A model generated the notes under the pieces. It did no database searches, had not been told where the DNA came from, and worked only from the letters and a program-made list of their open reading frames with translations. This document shows, in pieces, positions 23,176 to 48,599 of a DNA stretch of 64,000 bases. The stretch comes from an uncultured archaeon. GTDB lineage: Archaea; Aenigmatarchaeota; Aenigmatarchaeia; QMZP01; JACQNV01. Numbering within the stretch: position 1 is the stretch's first letter; each line of letters begins with the position of its first letter. The translations under genes were made by a program, and so were the position numbers. The stretch is from contig CAYPFW010000001.1 of NCBI GenBank assembly GCA_964410585.1, positions 447,814-511,813 of the forward strand, read 5' to 3'.

Positions 23176-23439
23176 CTACTTTGATACCAATCCTTTTTGA
23201 ATTATTTTTTTAATCAGTTCTGGATTCCAGACCCAGACTATTTTTTCGTCTTTGTCTATTATTATTTTGTTCAAATCAACTAGATAATCAACTATCATAG
23301 AAAATGTTTGGTACATAACCTGTTTTGGGAGAGCCTTCCACAATTCTGTTCTTGTTGGATAGAAATCCAACTTTTTGATAGTTTCTTCTACCATTAAAAC
23401 AGTGTCTAATCTTGGATAGTGCAAAATATCTTGGCTCAT
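23176..23439 (-). CDS. Small DNA-binding/antitoxin-like protein, orphan paralog of 44417-44680
   Basis: MSQDILHYPRLDTVLMVEETIKK...; strongly similar at nucleotide level to the 44.4-kb copy by eye (my rough estimate 85-90% identity), including its promoter. Confidence 0.6.
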   Translation of the reverse strand: MSQDILHYPRLDTVLMVEETIKKLDFYPTRTELWKALPKQVMYQTFSMIVDYLVDLNKIIIDKDEKIVWVWNPELIKKIIQKGLVSK

Positions 23440-23447
23440 GTAATTAT

Positions 23448-23466
23448 ATAAGTTTATATAACTTAT
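23448..23466. promoter_or_regulatory. Palindromic TATA-overlapping operator candidate
   Basis: ATAAGTT-TATAT-AACTTAT lies 9 nt upstream of the ATG. An identical copy is at 44689-44707. Confidence 0.5.
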
Positions 23467-23638
23467 AAAGTTATCGTTAACACATATAACACCGTTATAT
23501 TCCTTTGGTTTAAAGTATTTATACAAGATACCACCAAATAGTAATAATGACAATAATTAATCTAGATCTTCTATATTATAATGTGTTTAAGATACTACGG
23601 TTTTGGAAGGAGATGTAATCGAATTTTTAAAGAATTGT

Positions 23639-39933: not shown

Positions 39934-40193
39934 AGACTTCTAACTCTCCTTTTTAGTTTTATAGAAATATCTTACTAAGCCACAAGGCTCATATCGATTA
40001 TAGCGTAGAGAATATCTGCGCGCAAAAGCCAGAAGTTCTGGCATAGAACAAGTCTTACCAAAATTTCCAACTTTAGTTTCTATTAACTATATCAAAATAG
40101 TAACCAAGGGCTTATAAAGGTTATTCCTCTCTGTGCCCACAAAACAAGATTTCTGTAATTGTGCTCACAAAAATCAGAAAAATACTTTAACCA

Positions 40194-40321
40194 GGTTTTG
40201 GGTACGGTAGCCTTTTGACAAAGGCGGAAGTCGCGTCTCCAATTAGCTGAGTGTTCAGTTAGTTGTTCGCGAGACGTCTCTGCGTCAATTTAGCAGGAGA
40301 CGCAGACCTTGAAAAGGCTAG
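40194..40321 (-). repeat. Long-form X repeat (reverse), starting 2 nt after the peroxiredoxin stop
   Basis: GGTTTTGGGTACGGTAGCC...GCGTCTCCAATTA...CGCGAGACGTCTCTGCGTC...GACGCAGA...GAAAAGGCTAG. Confidence 0.8.
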
Positions 40322-40323
40322 CT

Positions 40324-40893
40324 CTAAATCTTCCCAACCAAATCTAAGCCGGGTTTCAATGTTTTTTTTCCTGGTTCCCAGTTTGCTGGGCAGACAAAGC
40401 CTTTGTTTTCTCTGACAAATTTTGCAGCCTGAAGTTTTCTCAATAATTCTTTTGCACTTCTTCCAATACTATTATCATGAAGTTCAAAAGCTTTTAGAAT
40501 TCCGTCTGGATCAATTATAAAAGAACCTCTCAAAGACAAACCCTCTTCTTCAATATATGTTCCAAATTCCTTGCAAATATTTCCAGTTGGATCAGCAAGC
40601 ATTGGATATTTTATTTTTTTGATAGAAGGTGAGTTGTCGTGCCATGCTTTGTGAACAAAAACAGTGTCTGTGCTGACTGACATGATTTCTGCACCGAGCT
40701 TCTGGAATTCTGGATATAGGTCTGCTGCTTCTTCTAATTCTGTTGGACAAATGAAAGTGAAATCAGCCGGATAGAAAATTAAAACAACCCATTTTCCTCT
40801 AAAATCTGAAAGTTTCAAAACCTTTTCTTCTTCATTTACAAAAGCCTTTGCTTTAAAGTCTGGAACTGGGTGACCTATTTTTACCATACTCAA
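40324..40893 (-). CDS. 2-Cys peroxiredoxin (AhpC/TSA family)
   Basis: FYPADFTFICPTEL active-site motif and a C-terminal resolving Cys (GFVCPANW). Confidence 0.9.
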   Translation of the reverse strand: MSMVKIGHPVPDFKAKAFVNEEEKVLKLSDFRGKWVVLIFYPADFTFICPTELEEAADLYPEFQKLGAEIMSVSTDTVFVHKAWHDNSPSIKKIKYPMLADPTGNICKEFGTYIEEEGLSLRGSFIIDPDGILKAFELHDNSIGRSAKELLRKLQAAKFVRENKGFVCPANWEPGKKTLKPGLDLVGKI

Positions 40894-41070
40894 TTAGAAA
40901 TCGACACAACCGATTTCAATTCTCTAACCCCTTAATAGCTACATTTGCCTTTTACATAAAAGAAGTAGCCATAGTTTTATTGAAGTTTAGATTTAAATAT
41001 CTTTTTGGGTAATAAGGTTTTCCCATGGTAAGACACAGGCCCCTCTCAAGTCGTTCAGAGAAGACCAAAA

Positions 41071-41107
41071 TTGAAACTAAGTGTCTTAGTTTCTCGCGAA
41101 TACTTGG
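41071..41107 (+). repeat. Linker copy C0 (diverged)
   Basis: TTGAAACTAAGTGTCTTAGTTTCTCGCGAATACTTGG. Same layout and same GTGTC centre as C3. Confidence 0.55.
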
Positions 41108-41232
41108 AGCGATCGAGCCTTTGCAAATAGAATTGAAAGGCGAAGAAGTTTGAGAGCCCGAACTTGTTATCATTAACAATTTATTCAGACATTATTTAGG
41201 TGCCCGCAGTTATCTCGAAATATATTAGAATT

Positions 41233-41583
41233 TTATTCCACATATTCCCCACGAATTGCAATAACTTTAAACCTAATGGCCAAATCTTCAATAATATCTG
41301 CAGCACCTGATTTATCACACTTTGATGTTCCTAGAACCTCATAACCTCCACGAGACCCCCCTAACCTATCTATAAAATAATCTTGCATCTCCTTAAAGAA
41401 CTCTAGATATCCCTCGTTACAAATTGTAACTTCGCGACGCTCATGATCAATTGCTATTGCACAATCTATTCTTTCACCAGACAAATGAAAAAGAGTTCTT
41501 CGCAACCCATCAGAAACCGCATTTCTATATTGCCCTAGATTTTCAAATTCTACTATCTTTTGTCTTGTCATTTTTTCACCCAA
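41233..41583 (-). CDS. Cassette ORF a, hypothetical (116 aa)
   Basis: Flanked by inverted repeats TTTGAGAGCCC (41149-41159) / GGGCTCTCAAA (41647-41657) and AGGTGCCCGC / GCGGGCACCT. Confidence 0.55.
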   Translation of the reverse strand: MGEKMTRQKIVEFENLGQYRNAVSDGLRRTLFHLSGERIDCAIAIDHERREVTICNEGYLEFFKEMQDYFIDRLGGSRGGYEVLGTSKCDKSGAADIIEDLAIRFKVIAIRGEYVE

Positions 41584-41657
41584 TATAAAATGTAATTTTA
41601 AAGCATATAAGCTTGTGGATCTCGTGGGCGGGCACCTCGTTAGTGAGGGCTCTCAAA

Positions 41658-41711
41658 TTTCACTTAATGATCTTATGCTCCCACGATAGTGGTTCGAACG
41701 CAGTGAGAAAG
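41658..41711 (+). repeat. Linker copy C1 (left arm replaced)
   Basis: TTTCACTTAA-TGATC-TTATGCTCCCACGATAGTGGTTCGAACGCAGTGAGAAAG. Confidence 0.75.
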
Positions 41712-42095
41712 TCGAGATTGCAGTGCAAAAATAAAAACAAGTTTTTGGATTTAATTGTTAAACGGTGGGGGCGGGTTTGTAGTTCCAGTTCTTACTATAA
41801 CTACCAACTCTCCAAGGTTCACAATCTCTTCTGCCAACAATTTCCCACCACATACCAGGGAAAAGGATAGTCGCTATAAAAGTATCTCCTATCTGCTCCA
41901 TGCGTGTATCAGAATAAGTCCTGATATCTTTTCTTAACTCATCAAAAAGATAACCCACTTTAGTTCTGTATACTTTTCCTGTATCTTCAGATACCCATTT
42001 TGGTTTAAACATACAAATAATTAAAGTGTAAATAATTTAAGCTTAACCCCGCCCCCTCGCCAGTCGTCTAGGAATCCAAAAACCTGCGATCTCGA
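41712..42095 (-). mobile_element. TIR-bounded small-ORF element b (384 bp)
   Basis: TCGAGATTGCAG..TTTTTGGATT..GGGGGCGGG at the left. The right end is the inverse: CCCCGCCCCC..AATCCAAAAACCTGCGATCTCGA. Confidence 0.7.
41758..42012 (-). CDS. Cassette ORF b, hypothetical (84 aa), paralog of ORF e
   Basis: MFKPKWVSEDTGKVYRTKVGYLF.... The C-terminal ...KPAPTV is encoded by the GC-rich TIR box. Confidence 0.6.
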   Translation of the reverse strand: MFKPKWVSEDTGKVYRTKVGYLFDELRKDIRTYSDTRMEQIGDTFIATILFPGMWWEIVGRRDCEPWRVGSYSKNWNYKPAPTV

Positions 42096-42130
42096 TTGAG
42101 CATAATGATCTTATGCTCCCACGATAGTGG
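42096..42130 (+). repeat. Linker copy C2 (3'-truncated)
   Basis: TTGAGCATAA-TGATC-TTATGCTCCCACGATAGTGG. Confidence 0.8.
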
Positions 42131-42136
42131 CGAGAC

Positions 42137-42433
42137 TTACTTTGGCTGATCAGAAGTCGAAGAGTCGACGGCGGAGGCTCTTGAAACAATATATTCTTCT
42201 GTAAAATTTTCGAGTTCGGTAAGAACTTCTGGGTCAGATCCTATATAAGCAAATAATCTGTGTGCAAGCATATCATAACTACCAACTTCTTTACCTTCTC
42301 TATCATAAATTAAAGCACCATCAATCCCTGGAATATCTAAAACTCTGAAGCCTCTTCTCTGTATTGATTCTGCAAAATCTTTAAAAGATTCGTCCCTTCC
42401 TAATTGATATTCTCCAATTTTAATTTGTTTCAT
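42137..42433 (-). CDS. Cassette ORF c, hypothetical (98 aa)
   Basis: Bracketed by TCGACGGCGGAGGCTC (42165-42180) / GAGCCGAAGCCGTCGA (42478-42493), 13/16 complementary. Confidence 0.55.
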   Translation of the reverse strand: MKQIKIGEYQLGRDESFKDFAESIQRRGFRVLDIPGIDGALIYDREGKEVGSYDMLAHRLFAYIGSDPEVLTELENFTEEYIVSRASAVDSSTSDQPK

Positions 42434-42493
42434 AAGCTATGAATTGACACCAAGTTTTAAATATACCAAACACAGAAGAGCCGAAGCCGTCGA

Positions 42494-42563
42494 TTGAGCA
42501 TAAGTGTCTTATGCTCCCACGATAGTGGTTCGAACTTGGGAAAATGATATAGAAGTGAGAAAG
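42494..42563 (+). repeat. Linker copy C3 (complete, centre GTGTC)
   Basis: TTGAGCATAA-GTGTC-TTATGCTCCCACGATAGTGGTTCGAACTTGGGAAAATGATATAGAAGTGAGAAAG. Confidence 0.85.
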
Positions 42564-42581
42564 TCGCATGTGGAGGGGCTA

Positions 42582-42836
42582 TTAACCATATTTTATTTTA
42601 TGAAACAGAACAGTTAATGAAAAAATAAATGTAACTATATTTATGCTTATCAAGGGCAACGAATTAATCAATACACCATAAATCAACCACAATAACTGAC
42701 TTATCGTAAGGATAAGATACATGTGAAAGTTAATATCGCGAGTCAACTTGGTTCTCCACACTTGAACTACTTGAGGGAAAATAGCAACAATTGACAAAAT
42801 GGTGGCAATATACCCGAGAAGGTCAACATAAATCAT
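42582..42836 (-). CDS. Cassette ORF d: SemiSWEET / PQ-loop 3-TM transporter (84 aa)
   Basis: Three TM segments with FPQVVQVWRTK and LWLIYG motifs. Bracketed by TCGCATGTGGAGGGGCTA (42564) / TAGCCCCGGAACATGCGA (42888). Confidence 0.7.
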   Translation of the reverse strand: MIYVDLLGYIATILSIVAIFPQVVQVWRTKLTRDINFHMYLILTISQLLWLIYGVLINSLPLISINIVTFIFSLTVLFHKIKYG

Positions 42837-42888
42837 ACAATTAATTGAATTCGCATATGTAAATATTTTTTAGCCCCGGAACATGCGA

Positions 42889-42957
42889 TTGAGCATAATG
42901 ATCTTATGCTCCCACGATAGTGGTTCGAACTTGGAAAATAATATAGAAGTGAGAAAG
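42889..42957 (+). repeat. Linker copy C4 (complete)
   Basis: TTGAGCATAA-TGATC-TTATGCTCCCACGATAGTGGTTCGAACTTGGAAAATAATATAGAAGTGAGAAAG. Confidence 0.85.
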
Positions 42958-43413
42958 TCGAGCTCGCAGTTAACAAATAGAAACAAGCTTTTGGATTAAT
43001 CTGTCAAATCAAGAGAGGGGGCGGGGATTGTTTTTGGTTCATCGATTTTTCTCAAATCATAGAAAGATCTAAGATAAAAATAAGGTACTAAAGCAGGAGT
43101 AACGACTATTCCAGAAATACCAATGCCTAAGCTAAGCAACGCATCTACAGGATCTTCTTCCCAGTTTTCTTTTGATATATCAAGATCTCTATATATACTA
43201 TCAACAGCTTTTGAAAAAGACCAACCTAAACGGGTTCTATAAACCAGTCCATACTCCTGACTCAAATGATTAATTGTAGAACGTGTAAGTTCCTCACTTT
43301 CTGAAACAGCTGTCTTGGGAATAAACATATAACCAAAATATAACTGCAAACAATTTAAGCTTAATCCCGCCCCCTCGTAAGTTGCCTAGTAATCCAAAAA
43401 CCTGCGAGCTCGA
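42958..43413 (-). mobile_element. TIR-bounded small-ORF element e (456 bp), homologous to element b
   Basis: TCGAGCTCGCAG..CTTTTGGATTA..GAGGGGGCGGGGATT at the left. The right end is the inverse: AATCCCGCCCCCTCG..TAATCCAAAAACCTGCGAGCTCGA. Confidence 0.7.
42996..43328 (-). CDS. Cassette ORF e, hypothetical (110 aa), paralog of ORF b
   Basis: Start set at MFIPKTAVSESEEL...LVYRTRLGWSF, matching the ORF b N-terminus. The C-terminal ...IPAPSLDLTD is encoded by the TIR box. Confidence 0.6.
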   Translation of the reverse strand: MFIPKTAVSESEELTRSTINHLSQEYGLVYRTRLGWSFSKAVDSIYRDLDISKENWEEDPVDALLSLGIGISGIVVTPALVPYFYLRSFYDLRKIDEPKTIPAPSLDLTD

Positions 43414-43436
43414 TTGAGCATAATCAGTGTTAAGTG
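43414..43436 (+). repeat. Linker copy C5 (right arm replaced)
   Basis: TTGAGCATAA-TCAGTG-TTAAGTG. The new right arm is the reverse complement of the C1 left arm CACTTAA. Confidence 0.7.
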
Positions 43437-43515
43437 ACTCTGTTAGGAGCGAGGCTTAACAGGTTATTAAGTAGCCGAAGAGTCGAAAGAAAGTAAACAA
43501 CTAATAGGGGCGGAA

Positions 43516-43884
43516 TTAGTCAGATCGTCTAGGCATAGATATAATGGTTGGTTTACCCATATCATCCCAAGCTTCCCAGGCTTCTCGAGAAACACCTGTT
43601 TGTCTAACGTCATCCCCAGTAACTACATGTGGAGGTTGAGCGTCTTCTGGAAGATTTTGCACATATCTATCAAAAACCCTACTAACAGCATAAAGTGTAA
43701 ATCCAGGATTTCCCCCAGTAAGTTCTTCCAAAGCGGCATAACCAGAATCATCAAATCTAATAAAACTACCAGGCTCTTGACCCATCGCTTTGTGTGCAAA
43801 ATCTAATCTACGCTCAACGACTGGTCTAACCATAGAACGGTTGGTAGGTATTTCGATGTAACGCATCTCAATTGGCTCTGACAT
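43516..43884 (-). CDS. Cassette ORF f, hypothetical (122 aa)
   Basis: Bracketed by TCGAAAGAAAG...GGGGCGGAATT (43483-) and AATTACGCCC...CTTTCTTTCGA (-43970). The composition looks GC-richer than neighbouring genes. Confidence 0.55.
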   Translation of the reverse strand: MSEPIEMRYIEIPTNRSMVRPVVERRLDFAHKAMGQEPGSFIRFDDSGYAALEELTGGNPGFTLYAVSRVFDRYVQNLPEDAQPPHVVTGDDVRQTGVSREAWEAWDDMGKPTIISMPRRSD

Positions 43885-43970
43885 ATAATCACCAAATCAA
43901 CCATTAAATATTGAAAGTAAACTATTTAAGTTATAAATTACGCCCTTCACGGTTAACCGCTTTCTTTCGA

Positions 43971-43985
43971 TTTCACTTAAGAGAC
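43971..43985 (+). repeat. Linker remnant C6
   Basis: TTTCACTTAAGAGAC shares TTTCACTTAA with C1. Confidence 0.45.
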
Positions 43986-44093
43986 TTTATACGAACGTTG
44001 ATAAACTAGACTGATTTTGGGCTTTATTTGTTGTTTTGAGATTGTTTTGGATATATTGATTCTGACGCTTCTGGAAATCTATAGACGCTAAAT

Positions 44094-44420
44094 TTAGCCA
44101 TATCCAAATCTTCTCTCATAATTTTTGTGATCAAACCACTCAAGTAAGATAGCCATTATTTTAATTTCGTCTTTTGCTATTGTGTATATTAGTCTCCAAG
44201 CGTTTGGCAAATCATATTTCCACAAATTGTCTATTTTGTATTTCTTGATGTATTCTTTCGGCCACAAATCTTGAGGAATCTTTATTCCACAATTTGGATT
44301 CTTTTTCAAATCATCGGTTGCTCTTTCAAGAAATTTGTAAAGCTGAGGATCTTCAGATTCTGCCTTTTCGTACTCCTCCTTTGTTTTCTCATCTATAAAA
44401 CCAACAAACACATTTGTCAT
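44094..44420 (-). CDS. RelE/YoeB-like type II toxin
   Basis: 108 aa with ...NLWKYDLPNAWRLIYTI...ILLEWFDHKNYERRFGY. 4-nt overlap with the upstream small ORF. Confidence 0.6.
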   Translation of the reverse strand: MTNVFVGFIDEKTKEEYEKAESEDPQLYKFLERATDDLKKNPNCGIKIPQDLWPKEYIKKYKIDNLWKYDLPNAWRLIYTIAKDEIKIMAILLEWFDHKNYERRFGYG

Positions 44421-44680
44421 TTTAATATCAATCCTTTTTGTGTCACTTTCCTAATTAGTTCTGGGTTCCATATCCATACTATCTTTTCATCTTTGCCTAT
44501 CGTAATTTTTCCCAGTTCTTCCAGATAATCAATTATCATGGAAAATGTTTGGTACATAACTTGCTTGGGGAGCGCTTTCCACAACTCTGTTTTCGTTGGG
44601 TAAAAACCCAAATTTTTTATAGTGTCCTCTACCATCAATACCGTGTCCAGTCTTGGATAGTGCAAAATATTTTGGCTCAT
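44417..44680 (-). CDS. Small DNA-binding/antitoxin-like protein (paralog of 23176-23439)
   Basis: MSQNILHYPRLDTVLMVEDTIKN.... It sits upstream of and overlaps the toxin. The palindromic promoter copy is at 44689-44707. Confidence 0.6.
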   Translation of the reverse strand: MSQNILHYPRLDTVLMVEDTIKNLGFYPTKTELWKALPKQVMYQTFSMIIDYLEELGKITIGKDEKIVWIWNPELIRKVTQKGLILK

Positions 44681-44711
44681 GTAATTATATAAGTTTATAT
44701 AACTTATAAAG

Positions 44712-45599
44712 CTATCTGTTGTCTCCATATATCCCATCCAGAGGACTCCTAACTTTTATCAAAGTTGGTGCAGCTGTGTGTAGATAAATTTGTGTGGTTT
44801 CTGGGCTTTTGTGGCCGAGCAGGCCTTGGACTTCTGAAACAGAGCAACCGTTTTCAATCAAGTGGGTTGCGAAGGAATGTCTTAAAGTGTGAGGATGAAC
44901 CTTCTTTCCAATTTTGGATTTTTTTGAGGCCTTTTTCAGGATTTGCTGGATGCTGCGGACGCTGTATTTGGTTTTTTGGTTTGTAAGAAAGAGTGGGTTT
45001 TCTGGGAGAAGACCTTCATCTTGGATAAGTTTTCGGATTGCTGATTTCAGGCTTTCTGCGATAATAAACAATCTGTCTTTATTTCCTTTGCCTCCTCTAA
45101 CCCAGCCATAGTTGTTTTCAAGATTCAATTCCTTTACAGTTAAATTTACAAGTTCAGAAACCCGCATACCAGAAGAGTATAGGAATTCTATCATCAGCTT
45201 GTGTTTTTGATTTTGTACTGAGGAAAATAATTTTTGAATTTCATCTTTGGTCAAAACAACTGGAATTTTCTCTGGAACTTTGGAGTAGCTTATATCTATC
45301 CAAATTCTTTTGTCAAGGACTTCTTCAAACAAAAATCTGATCGCCATGTGGTAGACGTTCATTGTGCTGCCTGATTTTTCTTTTTCAGAGAGATTTTCAA
45401 GAAATTCGCGGACATCTTTTTTGCCTATTTTATCCAGACTCTTTCTAGAGAATTTTAGAAATTGATCGATACAATAAATATAGGTCTCAGATGTTCTGGG
45501 ACTATAGTTTCTTCTTCTACATTCTTTTTCGAGAGAAGATTTCCAATCGATAGGTGTGTAGGACATACGATTTATGTATATTTTTAATTCTTTTGGCAT
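44712..45599 (-). CDS. Tyrosine site-specific recombinase (Xer/integron-integrase-like)
   Basis: SAM-like N-terminal domain. Catalytic positions are R (GMRVSEL), HTLRHSF, LLGHKS and IYLH. C-terminal IKVRSPLD resembles the IntI1 C-terminus GVRSPLD. Confidence 0.85.
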   Translation of the reverse strand: MPKELKIYINRMSYTPIDWKSSLEKECRRRNYSPRTSETYIYCIDQFLKFSRKSLDKIGKKDVREFLENLSEKEKSGSTMNVYHMAIRFLFEEVLDKRIWIDISYSKVPEKIPVVLTKDEIQKLFSSVQNQKHKLMIEFLYSSGMRVSELVNLTVKELNLENNYGWVRGGKGNKDRLFIIAESLKSAIRKLIQDEGLLPENPLFLTNQKTKYSVRSIQQILKKASKKSKIGKKVHPHTLRHSFATHLIENGCSVSEVQGLLGHKSPETTQIYLHTAAPTLIKVRSPLDGIYGDNR

Positions 45600-45624: not shown

Positions 45625-45831
45625 TCAAGCTGCTTGTAGAGAAGAAATTGTGTTTTTAGGGACTACTTTGCTTGCTGAAAGGATTTCTATTCCAATTAAT
45701 TTTTTGTTTGAGTCAAAATCGAGGACAATATTTTCGTTCATAGACACTGTGCTCTTTACTTCGCCTTTGGAGATTTTGTCCTTTAGGTAAATGTAGGCTG
45801 CATCTGCTTCTTTGTCGTATGTTATTTTCAT
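45625..45831 (-). CDS. DUF2283-family small protein (antitoxin-like partner)
   Basis: ITYDKEADAAYIYL...LIGIEILSAS pattern. Confidence 0.65.
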   Translation of the reverse strand: MKITYDKEADAAYIYLKDKISKGEVKSTVSMNENIVLDFDSNKKLIGIEILSASKVVPKNTISSLQAA

Positions 45832-45835
45832 ATCT

Positions 45836-46051
45836 CTAGTAGACTGTTATTATAATTATAGTGTCTTTTTCTTCCTTATAAACAACCTCTATAGTGCGGT
45901 TGCTAATTTTTTTGGTAGCTGTGTTTCTATCTTTGAACGATGATATTGAATAATCATAAGAATATATGGTTTGTTCAACTTGTTCTTTTGATATGTCACG
46001 CTCTTCCATTCTCTGTTTAGCATGGTTTGTGTACACTATTCTTTTTGGCAT
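45836..46051 (-). CDS. DUF4258-family toxin-like protein
   Basis: YTNHAKQRMEERDISKEQVEQTI signature. Confidence 0.65.
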   Translation of the reverse strand: MPKRIVYTNHAKQRMEERDISKEQVEQTIYSYDYSISSFKDRNTATKKISNRTIEVVYKEEKDTIIIITVY

Positions 46052-46085: not shown

Positions 46086-46430
46086 TCAGTTAGCATAGTC
46101 TTCTTGAGAAAGAACAACGCTCAATTTTATTGGTCCGTCTTCTATTGGTTTTAGCCTCATTTTCAGAATTTCGTTGAAAAAGAAGCTAAGAGAATTCGAA
46201 ATAAGTTGTGGGAAAGCCCCTGATTTGTTGGAGAGCTCTTTTTCCAAATATTCTTGCAAATCGCTTTCTGTTATTTCTTCCAACGGTTTGTCTATCTTAA
46301 AAACAAACTTTTTAATGTTGAAAAGATGTGTTGCTATTGTTTCTTCTGGCAGATTCTTGAGCCTCATTTCCCTGTATGCAACAAATATTGGGTCAATATC
46401 CATTTCCATAATACTCCTCCTATTCATCAC
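46086..46430 (-). CDS. Stand-alone integrase N-terminal SAM-like (core-binding) domain protein
   Basis: Helical pattern ...EETIATHLFNIKKFVFKI...ITESDLQEYLEK...SLSFFFNEIL without any catalytic domain. Confidence 0.5.
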   Translation of the reverse strand: MMNRRSIMEMDIDPIFVAYREMRLKNLPEETIATHLFNIKKFVFKIDKPLEEITESDLQEYLEKELSNKSGAFPQLISNSLSFFFNEILKMRLKPIEDGPIKLSVVLSQEDYAN

Positions 46431-46758
46431 TCATTGCAATCTCCCTGAAAAGGAGATGTATAGCGTCTCTTGCAATTTTTTTATTTGATTGTATTTGGTT
46501 TAGGTAATCGTTAAGGTCTTCCTCGCAGGCTGCTGATGGGTCCTTTTCCAAAAAGTTTAGGAACCCGTATATGTGGAACCAGTAGTCTTTTATTTCCTCT
46601 TTTGAGAGGCTTCTTCTCTCCATTTCTAGAGAAAGTTTAAACTCTAATGTCCTTGGATAAAAATCCAAAGCTGTGGAAAATTCTAAGAAGGCTCCTTGGA
46701 CAATTTGTTTTTCCAATTCATCGGCCTTTGGAGGGCAAGATTGTAACATAATGATCAC
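46420..46758 (-). CDS. Second stand-alone integrase SAM-like domain protein
   Basis: ...YWFHIYGFLNFLEKDPSAACEEDLNDYLNQI...IHLLFREI. An S-repeat box lies directly upstream. Confidence 0.45.
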   Translation of the reverse strand: MIIMLQSCPPKADELEKQIVQGAFLEFSTALDFYPRTLEFKLSLEMERRSLSKEEIKDYWFHIYGFLNFLEKDPSAACEEDLNDYLNQIQSNKKIARDAIHLLFREIAMSDE

Positions 46759-46761
46759 TTA

Positions 46762-46856
46762 AATTGTAATTTAGTTTTCTTTTGGGATACCTTACCACTT
46801 CTCTAGTTGTAAACTTTTGATCAACCTTTTCTTAAAAGGTTGAGAAAGGGGAAGTT
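46762..46856 (-). repeat. S repeat (reverse) with a Z hairpin nested in its loop
   Basis: TTTAGTTTTCTTTTGGGATACCTTACCACTTCTC ... TCAACCTTTT-CTT-AAAAGGTTGA (46821-46843) ... GAGAAAGGGGAAG. Confidence 0.7.
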
Positions 46857-46969
46857 GGAGGGGTATCCTTCGGGGGCAATCCGAAGGTTGCTGACATGTA
46901 TTTCAGTCAGCTCTCCACAATAAGACGTTCTTTTGGACAGTATATAAGGCAAACCCAAGGGTAGCTTTC

Positions 46970-47100
46970 CGCAATTCCAATTTCGGTGTTATATTGGCTA
47001 TGTATATCGATTTTCGAGATTCCAATAAATTCCACAAAGAAACAGTGTTATTTATTTTTATGCTTCAATAAAATAGATGAGGAAAGATTTGGTCAAAATT
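46970..47100. other. Candidate replication-origin features (ORB-like TTCCA boxes plus an AT-rich tract)
   Basis: AATTCCAATTTCGG, GATTCCAATAAATTCCACAAAGAAAC, then TGTTATTTATTTTTATGCTTCAATAAAATAG. A further AGTTCCAATTTTGA lies at 48640-48655 on the other side of cdc6. Confidence 0.25.
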
Positions 47101-47172
47101 TATAGAGAGGATAGGAGACGATTAGCTAGACAAATTTATGCGGAATTTTTATCTTGAGACTCTCGCGGAGTT

Positions 47173-47511
47173 TTGGATTTGGTTAGATCAAAGGGATATG
47201 AGGTAGATGGTCTTCAAATTAGAGGCGATATACAAGTTGATTTTTATGCAACAAAACCAGTAGGACAGAGAAAAATTTATGTTGCTGCACCTGTTTTAGA
47301 TGATAAGGGACACAAACTTTTGATAAGAGGTGAGGCATATGGCAACCCATTATTTGATTTGCATAGGGGAGTTCATCTTGTTTTGCATCCACCTCGCCAG
47401 GAGGAATCTGATCTTGATCAGCTTTTTGAGGCAGTATCTCAACAATTTCCACCGCTACTGTTACTTAAGTTGTTTTATAGGGATGTAAATAAAAGAAGAG
47501 AAGCCTTATAG
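47173..47511 (+). CDS. Hypothetical protein (TTG start, weak)
   Basis: 112-aa ORF with no ATG start and no recognisable motif. Confidence 0.3.
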   Translation: MDLVRSKGYEVDGLQIRGDIQVDFYATKPVGQRKIYVAAPVLDDKGHKLLIRGEAYGNPLFDLHRGVHLVLHPPRQEESDLDQLFEAVSQQFPPLLLLKLFYRDVNKRREAL

Positions 47512-47579
47512 AACCAAGGAATAGCAGACGGTTTGGATGTTGTAGAGGAACTTATTTTAGAAAACGATAGCATGCTAAG

Positions 47580-48599
47580 TTAAATAGTATAAATCCTTCC
47601 CCTACCATCTCCAACAAGTTTGATCAGCTTATAGTGTTCCAATTTATCTAAATAATTCCTTGCTGTCCTGTCAACTATTTTTTCCAGTTTATTTTTTTCA
47701 CATAACTCTTCAAATTTTTTGTAGAAGTCTTGAGGCGCTATTTTTCCTGAAGCACAAATAATTTCATACATTAGTTTTTGATGCTTGTTTAGAGAGGATA
47801 TTAGATCATTTCTTCCAACGATTTTGGCCTTGTGTATGAATTTATCTACAAAATCAACTGGGATTTTTTTTAAATCTTTTCTCTCTGCCTCTTCTGCAAC
47901 TATTCTTAAAGTATCTATAGCAAACCTCGAATCTCCCTCTGAAACAGAGGCTATTTTTTCAATCAATTCTTGGGAAGCCGCGTGTGGGAGGAGACCATAT
48001 TCTGCTCTGGTTTTTAGTATGTCTATTATCTCATACTCTTTGTAGTGCGGAAATTCTATGTAGTTTATTGAGGCTAACCTACTCCTTATTCTTTCCTCGA
48101 AACCAAAGAGCGCTGTCTCTTTATTTGAAATGAAAATTAAACAAGCACCCAGTGAAAGAAATTCATAGATAATTCTGTCAGATTCTATCTGGTCCACCTC
48201 ATCTAAAATTATCACACAATTCTTGCCTTTTATTTTTGCTTTAACTTTTTCCAAAAGCTCGTCTGTTGGTATGCCTTTCCTGTGGATGAATGTTTGACCA
48301 AATTCATGAAGAATATTGTAAAGTATTTGGAAATCAGAAGGTGTTGTCCAACAGTTTATGTAAGAAGATGTTACAGGAATGTGAGATTTCAGTTCCTCAA
48401 TAATAAATTTTGAGAGGCAGGTTTTTCCTGTTCCAGGTGGCCCGTACAAGAAAACATTCCTTGCCTGCTTCCCATTTACTATTGGAGAAAGGTCGTCGCG
48501 TATAGTGGATATTTGAGAATCTCTATGAATAATTTTTGATGGAATGAATTGCTCTGTTAGAACGCGAAGATCTCGGATGATTGTATTATCTGTATACAT
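47580..48599 (-). CDS. cdc6: Orc1/Cdc6 replication initiator
   Basis: AAA+ fold (LYGPPGTGKT, VIILDEVD), an initiator-specific region and a C-terminal winged helix. Confidence 0.9.
   Translation of the reverse strand: MYTDNTIIRDLRVLTEQFIPSKIIHRDSQISTIRDDLSPIVNGKQARNVFLYGPPGTGKTCLSKFIIEELKSHIPVTSSYINCWTTPSDFQILYNILHEFGQTFIHRKGIPTDELLEKVKAKIKGKNCVIILDEVDQIESDRIIYEFLSLGACLIFISNKETALFGFEERIRSRLASINYIEFPHYKEYEIIDILKTRAEYGLLPHAASQELIEKIASVSEGDSRFAIDTLRIVAEEAERKDLKKIPVDFVDKFIHKAKIVGRNDLISSLNKHQKLMYEIICASGKIAPQDFYKKFEELCEKNKLEKIVDRTARNYLDKLEHYKLIKLVGDGRGRIYTI

Follow-up and report, generated by a model that had tools for sequence, protein, structure and literature searches.

The 64,000-nt stretch of DNA analysed here (the window; positions 447,814 to 511,813 of contig CAYPFW010000001.1, assembly GCA_964410585.1, from an uncultured archaeon of the Aenigmatarchaeota) carries an array of small gene cassettes beside xerA, a gene for a tyrosine recombinase. 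We propose that the array serves gene capture on the chromosome and that the XerA-type recombinase (44712–45599, minus strand) acts on its dif-like core sites, a reading to which we assign a probability of roughly 0.8. That the cassette array is a site-specific one we regard as highly probable, and the platform on which it is built is apparently integron-like, based on Xer and dif, and general in one clade of the DPANN archaea. The reading is carried by the anatomy of the array, the Xer identity of the recombinase, the linkage of xerA to a conserved site, the way in which relatives have gained, lost and duplicated cassettes exactly at the sites, and the position of the crossover. No prior description of such arrays was found in the literature searched, which is not proof of absence from the literature.

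Seven dif-like core sites bound six cassettes between positions 41071 and 43995. The array spans the interval from a peroxiredoxin gene (40324–40893) to the recombinase gene and contains six minus-strand open reading frames (ORFs), each enclosed by its own inverted repeat and set apart from the next by a copy of a linker of about 70 nt, which is complete at 42494–42563 and 42889–42957 and partial or diverged at 41658, 42096, 43414, 41071 and 43971. A prior reading of the letters alone (the sequence-only reading) had described these ORFs, linker copies and cassette-specific inverted repeats, all of which we find at these positions. It had also considered that the linker might be a genome-wide repeat, which is not what we observe: within the 64 kb the linker core has three to four matches, every one of them in the array, where 100 shuffles lead one to expect none. 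Since a second, independent assembly (GCA_947085685.1) has the identical array (20,558 nt, one mismatch), the array is not an assembly artefact; this being the sole other assembly, no variation was seen within the window's own strain. The array is chromosomal, on a contig of about 600 kb with orc1/cdc6 and other chromosomal genes, and none of the window cassettes contains a recombinase gene. All of its sites are direct repeats of the same polarity, with a left arm, a spacer starting [C/G]A and a right arm ending AAT.

Read in the orientation of xerA, that is on the minus strand, a core site has the form of a left arm nnnnnTAA, a spacer of 5–6 nt and a right arm TTAnnnnnAA. The consensus of 30 distinct junctions from 13 loci is GG[G/T]NNNN-TAA / [C/G]A-NNN(N) / TTA-NNNN[C/A]-AAT (in the compact form of a search pattern, GG[G/T]NNNNTAA-N5-6-TTANNNNNAAT), with TAA and TT(A)...AAT invariant and a spacer of 6 nt in 23 junctions and of 5 nt in seven. 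It resembles the dif site of E. coli, GGTGCGCATAA-TGTATA-TTATGTTAAAT. Two partly symmetric arms of about 11 bp around a spacer of about 6 nt are the layout of dif, and the array sites share it; bacterial and archaeal dif sites run arm-spacer-arm, and XerA cleaves them at the spacer borders (PMC2958812, PMC3646895). The core had been described from the letters as GAGCATA-N7-TATGCTC and is better taken as 8-bp arms ending TAA/TTA around a spacer of 5–6 nt. Although dif has been described as single-copy in archaea (PMC8371274), there are seven direct copies here within 3 kb. A search of viral contigs for the two palindromic core types gave 19 matches, all of them chance palindromes without the surrounding features.

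The sites are not attC-like, as the sequence-only reading had held: a pattern scan for the attC signature RYYYAAC...GTTRRRY returned no candidates on either strand of 40900–44100. The attC that Ghaly et al. (2022; PMC9668308) reported from an Aenigmatarchaeota genome is a canonical hairpin, 72 nt long and ending in GTTAGCC; it shares nothing with the array sites, and the supplementary data of that study contain none of the array arm sequences. The recombinase (295 aa; Pfam Phage_int_SAM_4 and Phage_integrase) passes the NCBIfam model for archaeal XerA (XerA_Arch NF040815; 229.8 against a cut-off of 220) and fails that for integron integrases (TIGR02249; 201.9 against a cut-off of 265), to which its match is split in two. 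Its alignment is continuous with the XerA structures 5hxy and 4a8e, its best solved relatives, and split with Vibrio IntI4 (2a3v), where query residues 191–215 face residues 180–245 of IntI4 and about 40 residues are missing. In a joint alignment the RII box and the H box lie 61 residues apart, compared with 57–63 in DPANN relatives and 101 in nine true IntIs. These scores and alignments mark the protein as an archaeal XerA equivalog without the IntI-specific insertion. Its pairwise identities (29–36% to IntIs, 33–40% to other Xer proteins) are too close to place the clade. A canonical archaeal integron, with an IntI recombining folded attC sites, has in its favour the array of small same-strand ORFs beside a tyrosine recombinase whose N-terminal SAM_4 domain is common in IntIs, a match to the integron-integrase model at E=1.5e-59, and the known presence of integrons in Aenigmatarchaeota and Nanoarchaeota (PMC9668308); against the shortfall in score, the absent IntI insertion, the absent signature pair and the dissimilarity of the published attC, we consider it extremely improbable.

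Homologues of the recombinase with 60–80% identity occur in Aenigmatarchaeota, Woesearchaeota and Pacearchaeota. Because xerA is followed directly by a housekeeping gene (tsaD/kae1, RIO kinase or AP endonuclease) in several related genomes, we suggest that the xerA of this clade is a core gene. That XerA runs the array is, in our judgement, likely, and to this extent the claim of a non-canonical cassette array served by the adjacent tyrosine recombinase is strengthened by the XerA assignment, by the dif layout of the sites and by the site-bounded indels in relatives described below.

The anatomy of the cassettes explains what the linker is. Each cassette opens with the right arm TTAnnnnnAA and continues with one half of a private inverted repeat, an A/T-rich promoter-like stretch (recognized by eye), the ORF, the partner of the repeat, a body of 30–60 nt that ends in a small hairpin (e.g. 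CCAC-TATC-GTGG), the left arm and the spacer. The linker had been taken for a constant, free-standing spacer; instead, it opens with the 10-nt right arm of one cassette, and its remaining 60 nt or so (spacer, left arm and about 50 nt of body) belong to the neighbouring cassette, with the crossover point 10 nt into the linker, after TTGAGCATAA on the plus strand. Throughout the array, cassette A excepted, the right arm of each site is exactly complementary to the left arm of the site that follows, so that the unit running from a right arm to the next left arm and its spacer has matched ends. Since the half-sites pair within the cassette, the hybrid sites at 41658 and 43414 are junctions of cassettes with different arm types. 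The TCG.../...CGA ends that had been noted for the repeats do hold in the window array, of which they are a local habit; relatives mostly have TTT... there. A 3-nt central mismatch, with TCC in the trailer and TTC, TGC or TAC in the leader and 5–8 perfect pairs on either side, was observed in the private repeats at 42165–42182/42476–42493 and 42564–42581/42871–42888, and also in loci L004, L010 and L014 of relatives (related loci are given by such L numbers).

Repeats of this kind could in principle act at the RNA level, either as processing stems around the ORFs, as in archaeal rRNAs, or with the linker as a structured small RNA or tRNA remnant. The linker does contain GGTTCGAA, a hairpin of 7–8 bp and a 4-bp tetraloop hairpin, and its single strand folds better than shuffles (z = -2.4 to -3.2). 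Set against this, ARAGORN detects no tRNA or tmRNA in the window, Rfam gives no match even at E<=1, the upstream arm of the repeat is probably not transcribed, the promoter-like element being inside the repeat (by eye), and the polymorphism in relatives is at the level of DNA and exactly at the sites, which leaves an RNA-level role with hardly any probability. The specific candidate that linkers are tRNA remnants of integrating elements, for which GGTTCGAA and a hairpin with a 7-nt loop had spoken, was rejected, as ARAGORN reported no tRNA or tmRNA and Rfam nothing at the gathering score or at E<=1.

Between the two arms of any one cassette, pairing holds in 98.4% of cells, a figure that is partly by construction, as boundaries outside the window were found in part via complementary arms, and their covariation is 0.78 compared with 0.19 in shuffles, none of 500 of which reaches it; arms that merely adjoin in the array show 62% pairing, equal to shuffles. 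The boundaries that were set independently, from the window linker repeats, indels and homology breaks, all follow the rule of arm complementarity. The median length of the longest exact repeat is 10 nt when a leader is compared with its own trailer and 6 nt for mismatched pairs (27 cassettes, 13 loci), and a perfect stem of at least 4 bp adjoins the left arm in 15 of 20 cassettes but at only 29% of control positions. Homology between cassettes B and E is seen in the non-coding leaders and trailers (86% and 82%) but not in the proteins, which are unrelated, and between the two cassettes one base pair of the 12-bp terminal repeat is altered on both sides, from A-T to C-G. It should be noted that a chain finder for complementary 8-mers proved unspecific (chains of three in 4 of 30 shuffles of 20 kb), and walks anchored at the platform site described below were used instead. 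The trailer bodies (e.g. window 41094–41150; L014 12040–12085; L025, L195, L004 and L019) fall into a few sequence families, among them ...CTCCAAGTATTCG..., ...ACGTTGCACT... and CTTTCTCACTTC...GTTCGAACC, which are common to Aenigmatarchaeota and Woesearchaeota; this sharing suggests conserved protein-binding or structural elements together with exchange of cassettes between the phyla.

The xerA-proximal site S6 (43971–43995, minus strand: TTCGTATAA / AGTCTC / TTAAGTGAAA) is both attI-like and dif-like, its left arm and spacer forming a fixed platform half and its right arm being part of cassette F. Upstream of its core lies a conserved accessory region (43996–44078, minus strand) that includes the box ATTTCCAGAAGCGTCA (44063–44078, minus strand). 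The platform half-site has the general form TTCG[T/C][A/T][T/A]AA + AG[N]CT[G/C], with the conserved box AAATTTCCnGAnTC about 60 nt upstream, and in relatives the half conserved beside xerA, TTCG[T/C]ATAA-AG[T/C]CT[C/G], is followed by at least seven different right arms. The platform site adjoins xerA in the window and in 12 distinct loci (L004, L010, L014, L018, L019, L020, L021, L022, L025, L195, L198 and L201), and the box AAATTTCCnGAnTC..., again about 60 nt before the core site, is found in nine (L004, L010, L014, L018, L019, L020, L195, L198 and L201), whichever way xerA is oriented. In the closest relatives (XerA 73–80% identical; L004, L010, L014/L016 and L018) the platform site is downstream of xerA and co-oriented with it, in more distant ones (50–66%; L019, L020, L021, L022, L025, L195, L198 and L201–L206) it is upstream and divergent, and next to homologues of 52% identity or less it is absent. 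A metagenome scan with the platform-site pattern gave 78 loci, of which only seven were real.

In these relatives, which belong to the Aenigmatarchaeota and Woesearchaeota, the site beside xerA is conserved and the cassettes differ, so that the different cargo between site copies for which the sequence-only reading had proposed to search is indeed found, next to xerA. Walks from the platform site lead into runs of matched-arm cassettes. In L195 there are five consecutive cassettes of one gene or operon each, all transcribed away from the platform site, encoding a 522-aa protein, an 822-aa DNA methyltransferase, a nucleoside phosphorylase, a SET protein, and a set of ASCH and nucleotidyltransferase genes; elsewhere the cargo includes methyltransferases, GNATs, toxin-antitoxin pairs and transporters. 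The cargo of the cassettes is accessory. Cassettes without an ORF (89–208 nt) recurrently stand first after the platform site (L014 11508–11714; on the reverse strand, L201 10952–11155, L198 10970–11058 and L025 10967–11088) and occur twice in L016, L204 and L025; the L014 one, which was checked, has no Rfam match, and such cassettes might carry a promoter or a small RNA.

Movement of cassettes can be read from closely related contigs. Four of them (L201–L204) encode an identical XerA protein (P0092). Over 11,159 and 9,006 nt, L201 matches L202 at 100% identity, the sole difference being a 673-nt segment, TTATACGCAA...GCGTATAA-CATCG, that corresponds to a single complete cassette (right arm through spacer) and whose ends fall exactly on the sites. 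In L203 a further cassette, of 860 nt, is inserted precisely where the platform half-site would otherwise meet the first cassette of L201, and in L204 the first cassette is duplicated in tandem. L014 and L016 show no difference as far as cassette 1 extends, and beyond it their cassettes differ; L113 and L119, from one metagenome, are alike in the platform flank (95.7%) and in a downstream cassette (98%), between which one has two cassettes and the other a single, different one. The presence or absence, insertion and duplication of whole cassettes correspond to the linker-bounded indels anticipated for related strains. As the indel junctions share only 2–4 nt and insertion is accompanied by no target duplication, neither homologous recombination nor transposition fits. 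In addition, many contigs of these populations break off at the platform site, within a few hundred bases of xerA, which is what differences between strains would lead one to expect. These comparisons show the cassettes of the relatives excising and inserting as discrete units.

The same comparisons bear on two further explanations. The units could be miniature inverted-repeat transposable elements with passenger ORFs, mobilized with strong target preference by a transposase encoded elsewhere and lying beside xerA by coincidence, and they do have terminal inverted repeats of about 20–45 nt (arms plus private repeat) and, in cassettes B and E, homologous leader and trailer frames around different cargo. 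We nevertheless hold this to be very unlikely given the missing target-site duplication at the L203 and L201/L202 junctions, the strict head-to-tail order at one locus beside xerA in the window and in 12 loci with the gene in either orientation, the Xer/dif geometry of the junctions, and the confinement of the linker to the array within the window. Less probable still is a static tandem array whose linker is a shared regulatory or terminator-promoter module: while the only second assembly is identical and the linker has hairpins and A/T-rich promoter-like stretches, the hybrid half-sites of the window have their partners one cassette away, relatives gain, lose and duplicate exact cassettes in otherwise 100% identical DNA, and metagenome contigs repeatedly stop at the platform site.

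All informative comparisons agree that the spacer remains attached to the left arm. Ahead of at least seven different first cassettes the platform spacer is invariably AG[N]CT[G/C]; cassette c1 retains CACTGA whichever of four neighbours follows it; and the spacer in front of cassette c3 is CATCG in L201 and CACTGA in L202. Because the spacer travels with the left arm, the crossover lies at the border of the spacer with the right arm, immediately before the TT of that arm; at this position a tyrosine recombinase sitting on the right arm cleaves the opposite strand, as is established for XerA (PMC3646895).

We propose that the fixed half-site (TTCGTATAA + AGTCTC, with about 80 nt of conserved accessory sequence) plays the role that attI has in integrons. 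Each cassette brings its right arm at the start and the complementary left arm with a spacer of 5–6 nt at the end. As the end arms are complementary, an excised circle would restore a palindromic dif-like site, and recombination of this site with the platform site would insert the cassette beside xerA, whereas recombination of two array sites would delete or duplicate cassettes; XerA would be the catalyst. The exchange may involve just the strand that is cut at the right arm, with replication or a resolvase completing the junction, since the spacers vary in sequence and length and exchange of two strands would leave a mismatched heteroduplex; single-strand exchange of this kind is known from integrons and from some phages that exploit Xer (PMC5357621). 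The long, cassette-specific complementarity of both ends leads us to infer a base-paired intermediate, in which the ends would at some point anneal to each other, either within a folded single strand or in a cruciform formed by the excised circle, like attC or the CTXphi site. A one-strand or folded-substrate mechanism is a tentative proposal that we would not put at even odds.

Several points weigh against the capture-array reading or parts of it. Mobility is seen in relatives and not for the six cassettes of the window, whose only other assembly is identical; cassette A has mismatched arms, with its private repeat intact; and the arm-pairing figure carries the circularity mentioned above. 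XerA may serve the cell as a housekeeping dimer resolvase, with the array taking advantage of its proximity and the enzyme not being dedicated to it, and a second, unseen recombinase might conceivably act on the array. Furthermore, the complementary arms could be the palindromic dif of each donor lineage, all tolerated by XerA. That explanation leaves the private repeats unexplained, while pairing of cassette ends would explain both these repeats and the compensatory base-pair change seen when cassette B is compared with E; we lean towards end pairing, with a confidence that falls somewhat short of even. A little under even odds is also what we would give to the broader proposal that, in a DPANN clade of Aenigmatarchaeota, Woesearchaeota and relatives, a conserved XerA and a dif-like site constitute a true integron analogue, with base pairing of a cassette's own ends and exchange of one strand.

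Integrons are the textbook machine of gene capture, and their origin from Xer-like recombinases is a long-standing guess. The array shares with them a fixed site beside a tyrosine recombinase gene, at which new cassettes enter proximally; mostly single-gene cassettes arranged head to tail and reading away from that site, many without homologues; first bases of a cassette that pair with its own far end and not with the neighbour; a crossover at one fixed phosphodiester just before TT; and similar site sequences with different cargo, some cassettes lacking an ORF. It differs in that its recombinase has no IntI-specific domain and scores as XerA; in that its sites are dif-like double-arm cores (TAA-N5-6-TTA), compared with attC hairpins of 57–141 nt with RYYYAAC/GTTRRRY; in that the complementary ends flank the whole cassette including the ORF, whereas those of integrons sit together downstream of it; and in that its cassettes appear to carry their own promoter-like leaders. 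A functional equivalent of attI, a proximal entry site, is present, and the array works as an integron but lacks both defining features, IntI and attC.

Elements without a recombinase of their own that are flanked by direct dif-like sites, use the host Xer, rebuild dif-like sites and may pile up in tandem are known as integrative mobile elements exploiting Xer (IMEX). Some of them exchange a single strand, with replication completing the process, and CTXphi uses folded single-stranded DNA. By its structure the array falls within the definition of IMEX, and Xer-dependent movement of its cassettes is probable. Known IMEX, however, are bacterial phages or large islands with replication or transfer functions of their own, whereas the units of the array are 0.1–2.9 kb long, hold one gene or operon, are archaeal, are served by a single XerA and have their site directly beside xerA; no report of archaeal IMEX was found in the literature searched, and reviews list them only from bacteria. 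The pdif modules of Acinetobacter plasmids likewise carry small cargo, namely resistance genes or toxin-antitoxin pairs, between Xer-type sites, and a given module recurs in different contexts. Blackwell and Hall are said to have described them in 2017 as lying on plasmids, with sites that alternate in inverted orientation (C/D then D/C) and are bound by XerC and XerD; in the array the sites are direct and chromosomal, there is one recombinase, and a dedicated proximal site receives insertions. Finally, the XerA/dif system of archaeal dimer resolution (Cortez 2010, PMC2958812; Serre 2013, PMC3646895) has the same recombinase family, arms with a spacer of about 6 nt, and cleavage expected at the spacer borders, and xerA and dif are adjacent in some archaea (PMC5357621). 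The array departs from it in having at least seven direct copies with variable arms that bound mobile cassettes, and in lying about 2 kb from an orc1/cdc6 gene and not in the terminus region.

If the integron analogue is real, it would be either an independent invention or a surviving relative of an Xer-based integron ancestor, and it would be a main route of gene gain in reduced DPANN genomes. A natural platform with an unmodified Xer-type enzyme and dif-like sites would make the question of integron origin testable. As far as the literature searched shows, this would be the first Xer-exploiting mobile DNA in archaea, and it would be a general means by which DPANN archaea, which with their small genomes rely on acquired functions, turn over their genes. 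It accounts for the frequent breaks of metagenome contigs beside xerA in these organisms, and it may offer a reservoir of proteins without homologues as well as short, programmable recombination sites that could be tried as tools.

Turning to the individual units, all on the minus strand, cassette F (43424–43980, 557 nt) has the arms TTAAGTGA...TCACTTAA, the spacer CACTGA, the private repeat TCGAAAGAAAG/CTTTCTTTCGA and an ORF of 122 aa (43516–43884). The next four cassettes share the arms TTATGCTC...GAGCATAA: E (42899–43423, 525 nt; spacer GATCA; ORF 42996–43328, 110 aa), D (42504–42898, 395 nt; spacer GACAC; ORF 42582–42836, 84 aa), C (42106–42503, 398 nt; spacer GATCA; ORF 42137–42433, 98 aa) and B (41668–42105, 438 nt; spacer GATCA; ORF 41758–42012, 84 aa). 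Cassette A (41081–41667, 587 nt; ORF 41233–41583) starts with TTAAGTGAAA and ends with GAAACTAA and the spacer GACAC, and its private repeat is TTTGAGAGCCC/GGGCTCTCAAA. The product of D is a PQ-loop/SemiSWEET-like membrane protein (Pfam PQ-loop, E=1e-9); for the three window cassette ORFs searched for homologues, those of C, E and F, only self-matches were found.

The sites that join these units are likewise on the minus strand. The distal site S0 (41071–41093) reads GAAACTAA / GACAC / TTAGTTTCAA, and its right arm with the leader (TTAGTTTCAATTTTGGTCTTCTCT...) also opens cassettes in L014, L016 and L018. S1 (41658–41680) is a hybrid with a left arm of type A and a right arm of type B, GAGCATAA / GATCA / TTAAGTGAAA, and S5 (43414–43437) is the converse hybrid, with a left arm of type B, a 6-nt spacer and a right arm of type A, TCACTTAA / CACTGA / TTATGCTCAA. 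Between them, S2 (42096–42118), S3 (42494–42516) and S4 (42889–42911) are homotypic A-A' sites, GAGCATAA / GATCA or GACAC / TTATGCTCAA, an example of the type being GAGCATAA-GATCA-TTATGCTCAAT. The peroxiredoxin gene is tentatively a last cassette (candidate unit 40067–41080, minus strand): it stands behind a C-type cassette leader, and downstream of it there is a lone 8-mer, GAAACTAA (40073–40080), whose chance of occurring within 1 kb is about 0.04 and which is followed by AGTTGG, with no recognizable trailer.

Between xerA and the site module, and outside the array, lie two small toxin-antitoxin-like genes in a variable context (44094–44737, minus strand; weak ParE/YoeB match). The interval between xerA and the box (window 44094–44737; L004 10917–11521; L014 10891–11379) holds a different toxin-antitoxin or Fic module per genome, MazEF in L004 and Fic in L014, and nothing in L010 or L018; it has no recognizable recombination site and looks like a second, unexplained insertion hot spot. 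A 106-aa ORF that overlaps the 3' end of xerA (44417–44737) has a DNA paralogue, 82.7% identical, 21 kb away at 23180–23478, and the short-read contigs L001 and L002 break at this repeat. Directly upstream of xerA is a DUF2283/DUF4258 gene pair (45625–46051), a probable toxin-antitoxin system, and the neighbourhood of xerA is rich in addiction modules. Further upstream, two tandem minus-strand ORFs (46086–46430 and 46420–46758) encode the N-terminal core-binding (SAM_4) domain of a recombinase only, and one may speculate that they are accessory DNA-binding partners of XerA. In L014 a 95-aa ORF with a faint SAM_4 match precedes xerA, and ORFs of 93–94 aa with no recorded Pfam hit are found there in L004 and L010.

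Because an orc1/cdc6 gene (47580–48599) lies about 2 kb from xerA, the array is likely to be near the replication origin and not the terminus; no clear origin repeats were seen in 46700–47650. The gene order cdc6, HATPase gene, xerA is kept in L004, L010 and L014. In a related Aenigmatarchaeota genome, at L198 13765–16554, the gene for the RNA ligase RtcB contains an intein.

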